Position numbers and translations under genes: made by a program
Notes under the pieces: generated by a model
What the model saw: the letters and a program-made list of their open reading frames with translations, nothing else
Told to the model about the DNA's origin: nothing
Database searches by the model: none
Part shown: piece by piece, positions 33 through 7,604 of the stretch
Numbering within the stretch: the stretch's first letter is position 1
How the letters are laid out: every line of letters begins with the position of its first letter
Origin: a virus
Direction: 5' to 3' (one strand)
Virus genome (UHGV): UHGV-0071483
DNA length: 16,668 bases

Positions 33-49
33 TAATGAGGAGGGTGGTT

Positions 50-523
50 ATGTACAGCCCGGTACAAATAGCCAATAAATTCATAACGTTGGGAAACCAA
101 CATCATAATCCTCTGACCCACATGCAACTGCAGAAGCTTACTTATATTGCCCATGGTTACTATTTAGCATTAACAGGTAAGCCTTTGCTCAACGAATGTG
201 TCTCTGCGTGGAAGTACGGTCCGGTTATTCCCGGAATGTACGATGCTTTCAAAGATTATGGGAATAAGCCTGTTACGAATGTAGCAGTAGCTCCTTTTGG
301 TGGCATTGTTACTATGGATCCGCAAGCAGAGAGCATTATAGGGGCTGTTTATAAATTTTACGGCTCGAAAAATGGAATTGAGTTATCAACTCTAACTCAT
401 ATGCCAGGTACGCCTTGGTCACAAACTTATAATGGTATTGGCTCGTCAATCATCCCAGATGATGCGATCAAGACTTATTATCATGATTTATTGAATAACC
501 GACAGCAATGTCAGGGCCTCTGA
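50..523 (+). CDS. DUF4065 (Panacea domain; GepA/SocA/PanA-like) protein, 157 aa from the ATG at 50
   Basis: Translated motifs LTHMQLQKLTYIAHGYYLALTGKPLL...AWKYGPVIPGMYDAF and C-terminal THMPGTPW match the Panacea/DUF4065 family pattern as I recall it; GGAGG 8-10 nt upstream of ATG 50 (the ATG at 35 lies inside the SD). Confidence 0.7.
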   Translation: MYSPVQIANKFITLGNQHHNPLTHMQLQKLTYIAHGYYLALTGKPLLNECVSAWKYGPVIPGMYDAFKDYGNKPVTNVAVAPFGGIVTMDPQAESIIGAVYKFYGSKNGIELSTLTHMPGTPWSQTYNGIGSSIIPDDAIKTYYHDLLNNRQQCQGL

Positions 524-1436: not shown

Positions 1437-2009
1437 TCATAATTCTGTGCTGGTGGCAGGAATTAATTTCTGCCAGATAGCGGAAACATATTTTGCCTGA
1501 TGACGGGCATCAGCCAGGGCGTTGTGCCGTTCGCCATCGAAAGGCATGTCCATTTTGGGGTCGAATCCGATGGAACGCCCAAGCGTAACGATCGTGCGTA
1601 CATCGTGGTCATTCCAGTACGCCCACGGGCAGATTTGTCCTGCTCGCTCGTAAGCTCCACGTAAAATTACGTTGTCGAAGGTGGCCCCGTTACCCCAGAC
1701 TTTTAAATATTTTATATTGTCTGCATGCTGATTAATGAAATGACTCAATTCAGAGAGTGCATCGCTGATCGATAAAGTGTCATCAATACAGATTGCAGCT
1801 CGTGCTTCAGGGCTCTGTTTCAACCACCACAGGATGGTATCGCCGTCAGGTGTAGCTCCTTGCTTCATAGCACTGTCTAGGCTGACAACCGCATAGAATT
1901 CTTGTCCGATGTCACCGGTTTCTGGGGTAAAGAACACCGCGCCAATGGAAACGATCGGTGCATCCTTATTTTTCCCCATCGTCTCAAGGTCGATCATTAA
2001 GTTGTTCAT
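1437..2009 (-). CDS. DEDDh-type 3'-5' exonuclease (DnaQ-like fold), 190 aa
   Basis: Motifs MIDLETMG (Exo I D-x-E), WGNGATFDNVIL (Exo II), HNALADARHQAKY (Exo III H-x4-D); ATGA start/stop overlap with the upstream gene at 2007-2011 and GGAGG SD. Confidence 0.75.
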   Translation of the reverse strand: MNNLMIDLETMGKNKDAPIVSIGAVFFTPETGDIGQEFYAVVSLDSAMKQGATPDGDTILWWLKQSPEARAAICIDDTLSISDALSELSHFINQHADNIKYLKVWGNGATFDNVILRGAYERAGQICPWAYWNDHDVRTIVTLGRSIGFDPKMDMPFDGERHNALADARHQAKYVSAIWQKLIPATSTEL

Positions 2010-2605
2010 CACTTCACCTCCTGCGGCGGTTCCGGTAGCGGCATCCAGTGGGTTACCTCCATGCAGCACCCATCATCCGACGTAAACCACGAACGGTCGT
2101 CCGCACTGAACCAGCCAATCCGGATATAACCCCACACATCGAAGAAAAGTACGTCGTGATTATTATCCGGCATTCGTTCACTACAGCTTATCCAACCATC
2201 CGGAGTTACCGGAGAGTTGCCCGACAGCTCGTTCAACTTGTAAGTCTGGCTTACAGGTTCGGCACCATGAAGCATGGCGGCGCGGCAGGCGTTCCAGCCT
2301 TCATCAAAACCGACTATGCCATTATTTAAAGACGGACGAACATCTGGCACCATCGGCACTGGCTTGGCTATATATAGCGGCTGAACATACCAGCCCTTTG
2401 ATAACCAACTGTCAGCAATGTTTTTACTCCGTGTTATTGCCGGAATACCTAAGCCATTGTCTGAATGCAGCCATGCCACCGGTTCTGCTTCCAGCGATAC
2501 CAAAGCAATTTCATAAGCACGGCGCTCAATATTGTCTCGCACATCCAGACTGCCTATGCGCTCTTTGATTTCTTTAATCAGTTCTTTGTCGGTAAATGTG
2601 GTCAT
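2009..2605 (-). CDS. DUF551-domain prophage protein (full-length YfdT-like)
   Basis: C-terminal THWMPLPEPP motif typical of DUF551 as I recall it; TAATG coupling with the upstream gene; GGAGG SD. Confidence 0.55.
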   Translation of the reverse strand: MTTFTDKELIKEIKERIGSLDVRDNIERRAYEIALVSLEAEPVAWLHSDNGLGIPAITRSKNIADSWLSKGWYVQPLYIAKPVPMVPDVRPSLNNGIVGFDEGWNACRAAMLHGAEPVSQTYKLNELSGNSPVTPDGWISCSERMPDNNHDVLFFDVWGYIRIGWFSADDRSWFTSDDGCCMEVTHWMPLPEPPQEVK

Positions 2606-4511: not shown

Positions 4512-4874
4512 TTAACGACCTGCTGCGCGGAGTTTTCCGTCAGGTTCACCGGCAAGAGTCAGTAATTGTCCCTGGTCTTCCTGCAGAATAGTCAGGCGAC
4601 CACCGCGATTGACATACATCGGCGTTTCGGTGGTGTCTTCTTCGGAAATTTTCCCACGGTTAGTCGGGCGAACATATGAGAGTTTGTGTTTGATTTTCAC
4701 ACGGTTCTCATCAAATGGTTCGATTTCCAGGTTGAGTGAGACCTTACCTTTGGTTTTCGTGTTCATCACACCGGAAGCGACTTCACTGAGAACTGCGCCG
4801 ATTTTGGTTTCAAATACGCCGCCGTCCAGCTCCCCGATAAATGCCTGCACATCAGTACTGCGTTCGCTAGCCAT
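4512..4874 (-). CDS. yfdP: YfdP-like prophage protein, 120 aa from MASERSTDVQ (the 197-aa track ORF is over-extended upstream)
   Basis: GAGGAG SD 7 nt upstream of the ATG at 4874; the upstream in-frame extension (Cys/Arg-rich, no SD) is not protein-like. Confidence 0.55.
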   Translation of the reverse strand: MASERSTDVQAFIGELDGGVFETKIGAVLSEVASGVMNTKTKGKVSLNLEIEPFDENRVKIKHKLSYVRPTNRGKISEEDTTETPMYVNRGGRLTILQEDQGQLLTLAGEPDGKLRAAGR

Positions 4875-4922
4875 TTTGCTGCTCCTCATCATATCGACCC
4901 TGCAAGGCCGGTTGGTTTCTCC

Positions 4923-5011
4923 ACAAAACAGAGAAGAACACCTGCGGTGGCAGCCGCCCGGATGGATTGGGTTATGAGCCCGTCGTCCGGTGATGCTCTT
5001 CTCTGTTTTGT
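4923..5011 (-). other. Long hairpin: perfect 15-bp stem (4923-4937 with 4997-5011) enclosing a 59-nt GC-rich loop, immediately upstream of the yfdP-like RBS
   Basis: Inverted repeat ACAAAACAGAGAAGA / TCTTCTCTGTTTTGT read directly. Confidence 0.5.
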
Positions 5012-5057
5012 AAAAAGAGCGGTACCAGCCGGAAGCAAGTGTACAAACTGGTACCGC
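5011..5057 (-). terminator. Intrinsic terminator-like hairpin on the minus strand (10-bp stem GCGGTACCAG/CTGGTACCGC, 19-nt loop, then TCTTTTTAC) inside the leftward leader
   Basis: Direct reading; lies between the predicted PL-like promoter and the first leftward gene. Confidence 0.45.
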
Positions 5058-5468
5058 CAAAGCAGTGGCTGTTGTGGTGGGGTTGTCACTCAGGCGTATG
5101 GTCAACCTGACAATCCGGTGTCCTCAACGGGGAAAGAGTAACCCCGCCATACTTACCGCCGCGCCATTTCGCGGATTACCACAACGCTGAGAGCACTTAG
5201 CCAGTTACGGCACCACACTTTGTCGCGGTTCCATAAATGCCCTCATCGTTGCACCCTGGTCTCTTCCCAGGCGTCAAACCGAATCGCCACGCTGGTTAGG
5301 CGTCTTATCAGCATCCTCATTGACTTGCACATTCCGGCTACCTGGTTTGTTTGCCCGAGCAAGGAGTGGATTGTCCCCTTTAACGTCCCCAGACCGCTAA
5401 CGACGCATGTGCCATACGCCGTGTTACAACCAAATTTTGTTAGTACCTTGTTTGTTGGTCTGGAAAGA

Positions 5469-5522
5469 AAGATAAAATGAAGTTGCGCATCATGCAAGTG
5501 TTTTTATTGCGAGATATGCAAT
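5469..5522 (-). promoter_or_regulatory. Candidate PL-like leftward promoter (-35 TTGCAT, 17-bp spacer, -10 TATCTT on minus strand) with operator-like palindromes TTGCgcatcatGCAA (5483-5497) and ATTGCgagatatGCAAT (5506-5522)
   Basis: TTGC-N7-GCAA motif shared with the OR region at 6290-6304; position just downstream of the cI terminator. Confidence 0.35.
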
Positions 5523-5527
5523 TTTAT

Positions 5528-5556
5528 GGGAAATGAAAAGCCACCTTCGGGTGGCT
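5528..5556 (-). terminator. Intrinsic terminator downstream of the cI-like gene (stem AGCCACC/GGTGGCT, TTCG loop, then CTTTTCATTT on minus strand)
   Basis: Direct reading; 20 nt past the cI stop codon. Confidence 0.6.
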
Positions 5557-5576
5557 AATTGATGAGGAGGTAAGGG

Positions 5577-6269
5577 TTAATTGTGTCGCTTAAGGGTTTG
5601 TGACTGGCTGATTAAGACCTTTCCAAAGACCATAAACCGGTGTTCATTTTCGCTGGTAATTCCCCATTCACGGTAAATCTGGTTATCAGAAATCACCAGT
5701 AGTTTGTCAGGTATCATTTGCAGTCGTTTGACATAAATTTTATCATCAAAACCAAATACATAGATACCATCTCCATCAAACTGATTGATACTGACATCAA
5801 CGAAGATGAGATCTCCTGGCTCAATGGTTGGACACATACTGTCCCCACGAACGTTGATAACTTTAATGTGATTGGCTGGTCGTCCGCCAAACATCGATAC
5901 AGCATTATCAGTTCTGTATTCAATGGCATGAATCACATCAATGACATCACCGCCCTGGATAAGGCCATTTCCCGCACTGGCACTGACATCCAGCATTTCA
6001 ATACGGAATACATCCTTCACCTGCGCAACATCCTCACTAATACTGTTTTTACATACAGTATTACTTTTGAAGTCTGAGGTAAAGAGATCAGCAATATCAA
6101 CACCTAAGCTCCTGGCAATATTACTCAGAGCTTGTTCAGTGAATTGTTTCTGCTTACCTGTTTCCAGGCGCGAGATATTCGCCGCATCCACTCCTATTGC
6201 TTCAGCGAGATCGGCGATTTTCATGTTCTTCGCCTGGCGAAGTTGTCTGACTCGATTTCCTATGTTCAT
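5577..6269 (-). CDS. cI: cI-like prophage repressor: N-terminal XRE-type HTH and C-terminal S24 (LexA-like) self-cleaving peptidase domain
   Basis: HTH region KIADLAEAIGVDAANISRLETGK; peptidase motifs GDSM (catalytic Ser) and VKRL (Lys); divergent from the Cro-like gene; no SD, consistent with a leaderless mRNA. Confidence 0.85.
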   Translation of the reverse strand: MNIGNRVRQLRQAKNMKIADLAEAIGVDAANISRLETGKQKQFTEQALSNIARSLGVDIADLFTSDFKSNTVCKNSISEDVAQVKDVFRIEMLDVSASAGNGLIQGGDVIDVIHAIEYRTDNAVSMFGGRPANHIKVINVRGDSMCPTIEPGDLIFVDVSINQFDGDGIYVFGFDDKIYVKRLQMIPDKLLVISDNQIYREWGITSENEHRFMVFGKVLISQSQTLKRHN

Positions 6270-6366
6270 GCGTTTATTACATTTCTTTATTGCGCGTTAA
6301 GCAAATCAACTTGCGCAAAATATTTGCGTGAAATAATATGCTCATCACGCAATATGTGGAGGTTAT
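6270..6366. promoter_or_regulatory. OR-like immunity control region: candidate PRM (minus: -35 TTGCTT at 6299-6304, -10 TGTAAT at 6276-6281, leaderless cI start) and PR (plus: -35 TTGCGC at 6311-6316, -10 TAATAT at 6334-6339), with repeated TTGCGC half-sites
   Basis: Direct reading; perfect palindrome TTGCGCAA at 6311-6318 and TTGCgcgttaaGCAA at 6290-6304. Confidence 0.5.
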
Positions 6367-6627: not shown

Positions 6628-7171
6628 GCATCACTGGAAAGTGGAAAAACAACCTGAGTGGTACGTGAAAGCTATCAGAAAAACTATCGCGGCATTGCCA
6701 GGTGGTTACGCTGAAGCTGCTGACTGGCTGGATGTAACAGAGAACGCATTATTTAACCGCCTTCGTGCCGATGGCGATCAGTTTTTTCCGTTGGGATGGG
6801 CAATGGTTTTACAGCGTGCGGCTGGTACTCACCACATTGCGGATGCTGTCGCACAGTCTGCTGGTGGGGTGTTTGTATCACTTCCAGAAATTGAGGAAGT
6901 AGAGAACGCTGATATCAACCAACGTCTACTGGAAGTTATTGAACAGATCGGGAGTTACTCAAAGCAGATTCGTTCGGCAATCGAAGACGGGGTAGTGGAG
7001 CCACATGAGCAGACAGCAATTAATGATGAGTTGTATCTGTCGATTTCGAAGCTCCAGGAACATGCGGCACTGGTCTACAAAATTTTCTGCGTTCCAGAAA
7101 AGAGTGACGCCCGCGAGTGTGCAGCTCCGGGCGTCGTGGCGTTTTGTGTCTGTGGAGAAACTAACGCATGA
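6620..7171 (+). CDS. CII-like phage regulatory protein (CP76/YdaT-like), GTG start
   Basis: Position after cro, AGGAGG SD, 8-nt overlap with the cro stop; family assigned from general resemblance only. Confidence 0.45.
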   Translation: MGKHHWKVEKQPEWYVKAIRKTIAALPGGYAEAADWLDVTENALFNRLRADGDQFFPLGWAMVLQRAAGTHHIADAVAQSAGGVFVSLPEIEEVENADINQRLLEVIEQIGSYSKQIRSAIEDGVVEPHEQTAINDELYLSISKLQEHAALVYKIFCVPEKSDARECAAPGVVAFCVCGETNA

Positions 7172-7316
7172 ACAGTTTAACGGCAAATAACCGTTGGTCG
7201 CAACAGCTGGTGGTCCGCGTGGCTGAACACCTGTTGTTACGGCATGAATGCAGATTACCAAATCACCTGGCTGTAAGTAACCACAGAGAACTTTACCTGA
7301 CTGTGGGGGGCGAGTT

Positions 7317-7496
7317 GTGCAGGAACTTAACCGCTGGTTTCGTGACGGAAGAGGACTTTATGTTCATGTTATTCGTTGGGAGCCAGAAACACAGCGCGTT
7401 ATCTATCTTCGCAAAGACTACCCGCATGAGTGCTTTAGTCCTTTGTGGAAATTCAGGCGTGATTTTGTTGAGTGTGAAGGACCACCAGCACATTGA
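7317..7496 (+). CDS. Small protein (59 aa from GTG) in a different frame from the 383-aa track ORF; possibly DUF4222-like; may be joined to the ORF starting at 7168 via the G6 run at 7305-7310
   Basis: Protein-like translation VQELNRWFRDGRGLYVHVIRWEPETQRVIYLRKDYPHECFSPLWKFRRDFVECEGPPAH; G-rich SD-like run 7 nt upstream. Confidence 0.3.
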   Translation: MQELNRWFRDGRGLYVHVIRWEPETQRVIYLRKDYPHECFSPLWKFRRDFVECEGPPAH

Positions 7497-7581
7497 TTCT
7501 GCCATTCCGGGACGTTACACTGTTCAGGCACCTTATAAAGCGGGTGCCGGGCGTGGAAACCCGGAATTCACCAAAGCGCAC

Positions 7582-7604
7582 AACCGCGCTCTTGCGGTTT
7601 TTTT
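7582..7604 (+). terminator. Intrinsic terminator-like hairpin (stem AACCGC/GCGGTT, then T7 run) inside the 383-aa track ORF, upstream of the Rha start
   Basis: Direct reading; argues that 7168..8319 is not a single gene. Confidence 0.4.

Follow-up and report, generated by a model that had tools for sequence, protein, structure and literature searches.

A non-coding leader of conserved pseudoknotted RNA modules between the repressor gene and yfdP of a lambdoid prophage

Position and overall structure of the leader

The virus genome UHGV-0071483 is a lambdoid prophage, analysed here as a window of 16,668 nt to which all coordinates refer, and in the gap between its cI-like repressor gene and yfdP, the first gene of the leftward (PL) operon, lies a leader of ~590 nt (4875-5497). 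The leader is read from the minus strand and is a mosaic of five conserved RNA units, arranged from 5' to 3' as the module D core, the long stem P6, module C, a small RNA (sRNA) with an intrinsic terminator, and a long hairpin (Table 1). Modules D and C are two widespread phage RNA units without an Rfam family. We found no description of either in Rfam 15 or in the searchable literature, including that on dicF-like regions, on hammerhead ribozymes in lambdoid prophages and on structured RNAs adjacent to tRNAs.

The minus strand of the leader (623 nt) folds as a whole at -239.9 kcal/mol, compared with -205.5 +/- 6.2 kcal/mol for shuffled sequences (z -5.6). A preliminary description of this DNA, made from its letters alone, had proposed a structured leader that contains a terminator-like hairpin (5011-5057) and a perfect 15-bp stem with a 59-nt loop, and had named comparative folding and an Rfam scan as checks. 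Every feature that it named is present where it was placed, the leader is structured by both the whole-leader fold and the covariation within its modules, and the structures of modules D, C and P6 are kept in relatives with compensatory changes. The Rfam scan gave no family match: scans of 4700-5700 at gathering and permissive settings returned noise-level hits only, with no riboswitch, ribozyme or sRNA, and the sole Rfam matches in the whole window are isrK and C4 (7528-7716).

The mosaic character is apparent from BLAST comparison with phages and with 5,426 complete E. coli genomes, in which blocks of the leader have differing distributions. The full leader (coverage of at least 80%) is found in 1,030 of these genomes, about a fifth, while the block 5079-5185 alone is found in about 4,700 and lies in K-12 within the Qin prophage, immediately upstream of DicF. 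The block 5179-5435 matches the trnI-ban spacer of phages P1 and P7 and a tRNA-adjacent spacer in epsilon15-like phages such as phiV10.

Table 1. Features of the leader, of the surrounding prophage and of the related loci discussed in the text
Feature	Position	Strand	Description
Module D core	5250-5424	minus	conserved pseudoknotted RNA; with P6, 5424-5178
Module D helix P1	5421-5413/5409-5401	minus
Module D helix P2	5396-5390/5344-5335	minus
Module D helix P3'	5324-5322/5288-5286	minus
Module D helix P4	5303-5300/5292-5289	minus
Module D pseudoknot	5297-5294 with 5280-5277	minus
Module D helix P5	5271-5267/5259-5255	minus
P6	5181-5252	minus	long stem closing module D, GCAACGAUGAGGGCAUU ... AGUGCUCUCAGCGUUGU
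Module C	5071-5185	minus	conserved pseudoknotted RNA, 115 nt, "dicF-upstream" element
Module C helices		minus	closing stem GUUGUGGU/ACCACAAC; Pb CCGCG/CGCGG (5 bp); variable hairpin Pd; Pe GGAUUGUCA/UGACAACCC (9 bp)
DicF-position sRNA and intrinsic terminator	5011-5064 (about)	minus	...CUUUGGCGGUACCAG-loop-CUGGUACCGCUCUUUUUA; stem 5058-5018, U-tract 5016-5012
Long hairpin	4920-5014	minus	23-bp outer stem, branched top; starts within the terminator U-tract and abuts the yfdP ribosome-binding site
Ribosome-binding site and start codon of yfdP	GAGGAG 4887-4882; ATG 4874-4872	minus	from reading of the sequence
PHROG-matching open reading frames	4889-5089; 4947-5141	minus; plus	same hairpin DNA
OL-like operator pair (putative)	5483-5497; 5507-5521		TTGCGCATCATGCAA and TTGCGAGATATGCAA; exact TTGC-N7-GCAA matches
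Predicted PL	5469-5497	minus	-35 TTGCAT 5497-5492, 17-nt spacer, -10 TATCTT 5474-5469
yfdP	4512-4874	minus	first leftward gene
Further leftward genes			yfdQ/DUF2303, yfdR-like HD phosphatase, DUF551 proteins, exoribonuclease-like gene
cI-like repressor	5577-6269	minus	HTH and S24 peptidase domains
Rightward genes			Cro-like HTH, CII-like, Ash/Rha gene (isrK and C4 RNAs before it), replication, Dam, RusA, Q, lysis
Q-type late antiterminator	13203-13955		precedes the lysis genes
16S-like slot element	L072 4580-4690; L103 3950-4060; L099 1910-2020	minus	in relatives
Phage P1 "dicF-like region"	AF234172 68791-68892		ban operon leader

Absence of coding signal

The PGAP annotation of an E. coli locus 98.7% identical to this one calls nothing between yfdP and the repressor gene. 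Five open reading frames (ORFs) of at least 40 amino acids are present in the leader (84, 66, 64, 86 and 41 amino acids), and none of the five has a match in Pfam. Two of them match PHROG families 33599 and 3651 (function unassigned), and hypothetical proteins are annotated here in some phage records; these two ORFs lie over the hairpins, on opposite strands of the same DNA. The minus-strand member of the pair shows no third-position excess, with 27/27/22 substitutions at codon positions 1/2/3 among 44 distinct homologues, and several relatives carry 1-nt insertions or deletions or stop codons within it. The PHROG-matching ORFs were judged over-annotation after these checks, and both families are probably collections of ORFs mis-called in a conserved non-coding region. 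A TTG-initiated frame (4512-5105, minus strand) has no stop for 77 codons ahead of the yfdP ATG, across the terminator and the long hairpin, but was rejected as an N-terminal extension of yfdP because it is broken by stops and 1-nt insertions or deletions in relatives L125, L091 and L159. The conservation of the leader is explained by base-pairing rather than by coding. The earlier suggestions that no protein-like ORF lies here and that no N-like protein is evident both held up: the leader has no annotated coding sequence (CDS), Pfam match or codon bias, neither the leader nor the early-left ORFs have an N-like Pfam match, and the only antiterminator found is Q.

Structure of module D and the P6 stem

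Relatives of module D were collected as 120 IMG/VR contigs by means of a 16-nt motif; 112 of the sequences are distinct, and their median pairwise identity is 61%. The fold, consisting of six helices and one pseudoknot, was tested on 30 diverse sequences. Pairing was found in 96.8% of cells, compared with 30-44% when the partners were slid by 1-3 columns; 11 pairs are changed on both sides, and none of 500 shuffles reaches the observed values. The sense strand is the minus strand of the window, since the invariant G-U pairs would read A-C on the opposite strand and since adjacent tRNAs always share the strand of module D. The hairpin formed by helix P1 contains one covarying GC/AU pair, split 16:14. 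An alternative pairing suggested by RNAalifold (GCACAU/AUGUGC) was not adopted, all of its pairs being invariant, though it may alternate with the P1 hairpin.

The nhmmer profile of module D matches the window at 5423-5250 (E 4.9e-36), which places the start of the module ~40 nt downstream of the predicted PL start site. With the nhmmer profiles, no second copy of module D or module C was detected anywhere in the window, including the rightward (PR) operon, no module D core was detected in Qin, and neither module was detected in HK022 or HK639.

Module D is closed by P6, whose strands in relatives follow RCAACGAUGAGRGCAUU ... AGUGCUCUCAGCGUUGU with covarying variants. The P6 fold has a free energy (dG) of -33.3 (z -4.1), and across 61 relatives the mean duplex energy is -26.4 kcal/mol, compared with -10.6 kcal/mol for shuffles. 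By analogy, P6 is predicted to be an RNase III site that parts module D from module C. Its apical insert is variable, with T-arm-like hairpins at some other loci and a type I hammerhead ribozyme at another. The hammerhead core was seen in one viral contig (L061 384-430, plus strand), where it reads CUGAAGAG...CGAAAC...GUC and scores 28.7 bits (E 5.5e-5), just below the gathering score of 34. In several relatives (L099, L103 and L011) the P6 insert contains perfect tRNA T-arm-like hairpins, such as GCGGTTCGATTCCGC, in which ARAGORN calls no tRNA. Additionally, the 3' strand of P6 carries UGCUCUUU in many relatives; this stretch is base-paired, so its resemblance to boxA may be incidental.

Structure of module C

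Relatives of module C were retrieved with a second motif as another 120 contigs, and the fold was tested on 20 sequences, in which pairing was found in 93.4% of cells compared with 34-55% after sliding, and 15 pairs are changed on both sides. A pseudoknot is formed between the loop of Pe, CCAUACGCC, and the upstream GG..GUAUGG. This helix is largely invariant, in part because the retrieval motif lies within it, and shows one double change, seen in phage P1. The nhmmer profile of module C matches the window at 5185-5071 (E 2.6e-36). The module is 89% identical over 123 nt to Qin (L002 2985-3107), directly 5' of DicF, and 75% identical to the "dicF-like region" that lies downstream of Pban in phage P1. 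We considered module C as a tRNA or tRNA-like RNA and rejected it as such: ARAGORN finds no tRNA in the window, the Rfam tRNA model finds nothing up to E 10, and the only parallels to tRNA are its position in the array and its GUGG...CCAC closing stem, as in the tRNA-Arg of phiV10-like loci.

The sRNA, its terminator and the long hairpin

The sRNA ends in a G+C-rich hairpin positioned immediately before a U-tract on the transcribed strand, as expected of an intrinsic terminator and in agreement with the terminator-like hairpin of the preliminary description. The hairpin has a 13-bp stem, which includes a perfect 10-bp inverted repeat (5019-5028/5048-5057), and a 15-nt loop, and is followed by CUUUUUA (U5; dG -21.2, z -3.9). 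A hairpin of this type (UUUGGCGG...CCGCCCUUUUU) is found 20-50 nt after module C in most relatives, DicF included, with a variable loop that differs between lineages. The sRNA lies directly 3' of a conserved upstream element and carries a 3' intrinsic terminator, the position that DicF takes in Qin and that is seen also in phage P1 and in dozens of IMG/VR loci, and it has UUUGGCGGUAnCAGUUU in common with DicF. The 3' side of the terminator (5008-5021, minus strand) reads CGCUCUUUUUACAA, close to the boxA consensus UGCUCUUUAACAA save for one extra U, a resemblance that may be incidental in a base-paired stretch.

The long hairpin contains the perfect 15-bp stem with its 59-nt loop (4923-4937/4997-5011) in the form described previously; the inverted repeat extends to 25 nt at 84% complementarity. 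The hairpin folds at -49.1 kcal/mol (z -7.3), none of 200 shuffles folds as well, and the diverged relative L097 shows compensatory changes. It is predicted, again by analogy, to be cut by RNase III, which would separate the sRNA from the yfdP mRNA.

Distribution of the modules and the interchangeable slot

Module D is found in three contexts: in lambdoid phages between the cI gene and yfdPQR, as in the leader (at least 58 loci); in epsilon15-like phages between the terminase and portal genes (about 27 loci); and in P1-like phages after trnI and before ban (about 23 loci). The position that follows it is a slot for different RNAs, which is occupied by module C at 44 of 150 distinct module D loci and by a tRNA at 24. 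In these 24 loci the tRNA-Arg begins at the GUGG of the terminal GUUGUGG of module D. The tRNA of phiV10 also begins there, and the leftward unit of this phage consists of a promoter-like TTGACA, module D, tRNA-Arg(UCU), a DicF-like terminator, a stem, a second terminator and a gene. On the other side of the module, the tRNA-Ile of phage P1 ends 16 nt before module D. Other relatives have in the slot an element of ~115 nt with the same GUGG...CCAC closing stem, in which a 47-nt stretch corresponds to positions 237-283 of bacterial 16S rRNA (31-38 bits, E 1e-5 to 2e-7); this element may mimic a ribosomal-protein binding site.

A scan of species genomes with a 16-mer gave mostly chance matches, and 14 of 120 had the flanking module D motifs. 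The 10 of these 14 genuine copies for which the host was looked up are all from Enterobacteriaceae, and the hosts are Escherichia, Klebsiella, Citrobacter, Kosakonia, Kluyvera, Phytobacter and Superficieibacter.

Operators, predicted promoter and other features of the prophage

Palindromes of the form TTGCG-N5-NGCAA are positioned upstream of module D and are repeated in the cI-cro interval (6290-6304 and 6338-6352, the latter with one mismatch), an arrangement that suggests an OL-like operator for the upstream pair. The predicted PL overlaps the operator-like palindrome 5483-5497, with a start site expected near 5462, and its placement at the head of the leader follows from this operator layout. 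The gene at the other end of the leader is annotated as yfdP in E. coli S30 and matches PHROG 204 (E 1.2e-49).

At the far end of the early-left region lie a SocA/Panacea-domain antitoxin-like gene (35-523, plus strand) and an Rv2179c-like 3'-5' exoribonuclease gene (1437-2069, minus strand), which may be defence or RNA-metabolism cargo. To the right of the repressor gene, isrK (67 bits, 7528-7604, plus strand) and the C4 antisense RNA (83.6 bits, 7629-7716, plus strand) are found in tandem inside a mechanically called ORF (7168-8319) with Ash and Rha domains in its C-terminal part. Together these form an RNA-controlled antirepressor module of the P1/P7 immI type inside a lambdoid prophage, and the true start of the Ash/Rha gene is probably after 7716.

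A probable processed cassette with an attenuating terminator

The leader is probably a processed non-coding RNA (ncRNA) cassette of the DicF type, whose terminator attenuates early-left transcription. We favour this interpretation because the dicBF operon of Qin has, in the same relative position, a homologue of each structural element, and for that operon termination, as well as processing by RNases III and E, has been demonstrated. DicF species of 190 nt and 53 nt accumulate in Qin, the 5' end of the former being dependent on RNase III and the shorter form on RNase E, and both terminated ydfABC-dicF transcripts and longer read-through transcripts are observed (PMC10448788). The passages of PMC5069750 and PMC9438474 that cite Faubladier 1990 place a further RNase III cut ~19 nt past the terminator, which yields a 72-nt DicF. 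A count of 190 nt upstream from the U-tract of DicF (L002 ~2920) ends at ~3109, where a P6-like stem that immediately precedes GGUUGUGG in Qin has its 3' foot. Since the count ends at the foot of this stem, the 190-nt form of DicF fits module C plus a linker plus DicF.

By this model, release of the cI-like repressor from its operators would allow transcription to start at ~5462 and to proceed leftward through the module D core, P6, module C, the sRNA and the long hairpin. A part of the polymerases would halt at the 3' hairpin of the sRNA, giving a leader RNA of roughly 450 nt, and the remainder would read through into yfdP-yfdQ-yfdR and the genes beyond. Cleavage of P6 and of the post-terminator hairpin by RNase III would then release module D, an RNA of roughly 177 nt composed of module C plus the sRNA, and the downstream mRNA, and RNase E would trim the second of these to a short sRNA, in parallel with the 190-nt and 53-nt forms of DicF. 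The leader would thus double as an array of sRNA and ncRNA units and as an attenuator that sets the level of early-left mRNA.

Two of the three functions that the preliminary description had offered are contained in this model. A regulated attenuator is plausible, given the terminator inside the leader upstream of yfdP and the coexistence of terminated and read-through transcripts in dicBF, although no regulatory input was identified. A prophage sRNA has the homology of its position and flanks in its favour, namely UUUGGCGGUAnCAGUUU, the intrinsic terminator and the same 115-nt element upstream, but not the Rfam DicF score.

Several observations weigh against the cassette model. The hexamers of the predicted PL are weak (7/12 matches) and a consensus scan reported neither a promoter nor a terminator; for PL, this leaves the operator layout as its basis, while the terminator hairpin was missed because its loop exceeds 8 nt. 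The Rfam DicF model (RF00039; gathering threshold 48 bits, with the Qin copy at 76.7 bits) gives no hit at E up to 10 on either 4700-5700 or 4995-5085 alone, and the sRNA is without the 5' UUUCUGGUGACG segment of DicF. In an RNAduplex comparison, which is crude in that it ignores intramolecular structure, the sRNA pairs with the ftsZ leader at -24.8 kcal/mol, compared with a shuffle mean of -31.5 kcal/mol (98% of shuffles were equal or better), whereas DicF reaches -38.5 kcal/mol, a value reached by 4% of shuffles. The sRNA was accordingly rejected as a member of the Rfam DicF family on model score and ftsZ complementarity, though it occupies the DicF position, and its targets probably do not include ftsZ. 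The published RNase III cut in Qin is given in the numbering of its authors (813/814) and is placed here from the 190-nt size only. Finally, the elaborate conserved pseudoknots of modules D and C are left unexplained, as neither processing nor attenuation would need them, and for this reason other functions of the two modules are considered below.

The DicF-type intra-operonic sRNA cassette is already known as a kind of element. New, relative to Rfam 15 and the searchable literature, are the folds of modules C and D with their covariation, the spread of both over three phage groups, the interchangeable slot and the promoter-proximal placement in lambdoid phages without N. DicF, a cell-division sRNA, is among the oldest known bacterial sRNAs, and we found no description of a conserved fold for the other 137 nt of its 190-nt form; this segment, module C, is now seen to be a covarying pseudoknot. 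Modules D and C are common to lambdoid prophages, phage P1 and epsilon15-like phages, and the layout suggests a general design of phage ncRNA arrays, in which units separated by RNase III stems carry swappable tRNA, sRNA, ribozyme or rRNA-mimic cargo.

Possible functions of the pseudoknotted modules

The order of elements suggests an array composed of module D, an RNase III stem, a slot for module C, a tRNA or a 16S-helix mimic, and a sRNA/terminator of the DicF family. We tentatively propose that this conserved array, as it occurs in temperate phages of Enterobacteriaceae, is headed by modules D and C as two classes of pseudoknotted phage RNA not described before, and that at least one of the two targets the machinery of transcription or RNA processing. 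That conserved D and C folds exist is close to certain; the tentative part is a machinery-directed function beyond that of a processing scaffold. If the proposal is true, the candidates are an RNA-only antiterminator unrelated to put and a decoy in the tRNA slot. The former would account for early-left expression in lambdoid phages without N (LLS, mEp460 and cdtI types), and the modules are testable candidates for how such phages pass terminators at the start of the early-left operon.

RNA-only antitermination is the main rival to the cassette model, though we think it unlikely. The nascent RNA of module D, module C or both would bind RNA polymerase as HK022 put RNA does, allowing it to read through terminators and replacing N. 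Protein-dependent antitermination by lambda N at nut sites does not fit, as yfdP is the first gene of the PL operon and no N-like Pfam match was found, and it is this absence of N beside a Q-type late antiterminator that would suit an RNA-based mechanism. The placement of the modules is likewise suggestive: module D would begin ~40 nt into the transcript and, in 58 or more related lambdoid loci, is what first follows the repressor gene, module C of phage P1 lies ~45 nt past the C1-controlled Pban and is followed by a terminator, and in phiV10 module D is separated from the next gene by two terminators. For phage LLS, which carries yfdPQR, the authors noted that N is missing and suggested put-like antitermination (PMC12315714). 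Additionally, a stem of module D resembles stem I of put.

The preliminary description had named a put-like element as its first option, and as a statement of family membership this is rejected. A covariance model of 30 put RNAs, including HK022 putL and putR and HK639 putL, with pairing based on cryogenic electron microscopy (consensus GUCGAACGGCGCGAC..UAAACCAUGCGUCGG, followed by stem II GGCGGG..CGGCAAU), found nothing in 4875-5497, and its best hit in the window (7.7 bits, E 0.69) lies inside the yfdP CDS on the other strand. Conversely, the profile hidden Markov models of the modules are blank in HK022 and HK639. A 9-mer common to put and module D is within chance (~0.15 expected, by estimate). 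The HK022 arrangement of one site after PL and one after PR is not reproduced, modules D and C being single-copy in the window without a copy in the PR operon. Furthermore, no one module precedes a terminator everywhere (module D with a tRNA does so in phiV10, and module C alone in phage P1), and module D of phage P1, in the trnI-ban interval, is 2.3 kb away from the promoter and is not followed by a terminator.

It is about equally doubtful that modules D and C are stand-alone stable ncRNAs with a function in trans, such as tRNA-like decoys or protein sponges against nucleases or defence systems, for which the leader, highly transcribed and also processed, would be a convenient site. The modules move independently among lambdoid, P1-like and epsilon15-like phages, and the ends of module D coincide with tRNA ends (tRNA-Ile in phage P1 and tRNA-Arg in 24 loci). 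The slot of module C is filled elsewhere by tRNA-Arg or the 16S-rRNA-like element, and T-arm-like hairpins or a hammerhead ribozyme occur in P6 inserts. In K-12, the 190-nt RNA made up of module C and DicF accumulates as a stable species in stationary phase (PMC10448788). However, no partner protein or target was identified, neither ARAGORN nor the Rfam tRNA model recognises module C, and in most sampled loci a sRNA/terminator lies within 20-50 nt of module C, which points to a role in cis or as a precursor. A trans function of the released RNAs would be compatible with the cassette model.

A riboswitch-like attenuator, in which module C would be the aptamer for a ligand or factor and the adjacent terminator the expression platform, is improbable. 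It would account for the classical layout of a compact pseudoknotted domain directly before an intrinsic terminator upstream of genes, and in relatives CAAC, which ends module C on the 3' side, has alternative partners in an upstream and a downstream GUUG. In the window, however, no alternative helix in competition with the terminator stem was found, and there is no match to an Rfam riboswitch; moreover, the slot can hold a tRNA instead, and in Qin the domain belongs to a stable processed RNA. That the region encodes one or more small proteins, such as an N-like antiterminator, is very improbable, since its ORFs, two with PHROG matches and one open into yfdP, are set against the nil Pfam and PGAP results, the frame-breaking changes in relatives and conservation accounted for by compensatory base-pair changes.

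Comparison with known systems

Structured RNAs that accompany tRNAs are familiar from other phages: species 1 and 2 (RNA C and D) of T4 are found in phage tRNA clusters, and ROOL and GOLLD are large phage-associated ncRNAs next to tRNAs. They resemble the modules in being co-transcribed and co-processed with phage tRNAs, but differ in host and size and share no sequence or model similarity with them (ROOL and GOLLD are in Rfam and gave no hit).

Like the put sites of HK022 and HK639, the leader is a promoter-proximal structured RNA of the PL operon in a lambdoid phage without N. The lower stem of helix P1 in module D, CGGCG/CGUCG, has a G-U at the third pair and is located beside CAUG, comparable to put stem I. 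Read-through of terminators by means of put depends on the zinc-binding domain of the RNA polymerase beta-prime subunit. A put RNA is ~74 nt with two stems, whereas the modules are 175-250 nt and 115 nt with pseudoknots, and putL and putR form a pair while the modules have no second copy.

In phage P1 both modules are present on the transcribed strand. The C1-controlled Pban is closely followed by module C, which starts ~45 nt after the promoter, and by a terminator hairpin, in the "dicF-like region" to which the P1 record gives no function beyond the label, and the module D core lies between tRNA-Ile (trnI) and ban (78% identical over 186 nt). The two are 2.3 kb apart and in reversed order, and module D continues into ban without the canonical P6 that ends in GUUGUGG. 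In the same region (L005 5200-5295, plus strand), the module D core is followed by AUUUUCUGGUGAUGACUC, a repeat of the DicF 5' arm UUUCUGGUGACG that immediately precedes the start codon of ban; some DicF-like sRNAs also contain the motif UUUUCUGGUGA.

The closest counterpart is the dicF locus of Qin. There the cassette follows three small genes (ydfABC), whereas in the window it follows the predicted promoter; Qin is without the module D core; and the sRNA of the window has another hairpin, no DicF 5' arm and no complementarity to ftsZ. Both loci are leftward, repressor-controlled early operons of lambdoid type with a P6-like long stem before module C and a sRNA with an intrinsic terminator 20-50 nt after it, and the 21-bp long-range stem found in Qin directly after the DicF terminator, before dicB, corresponds in position to the 23-bp hairpin of the window. 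Cleavage by RNases III and E is experimental in Qin, and the homologous stems of the window suggest that its leader may be processed in the same way.

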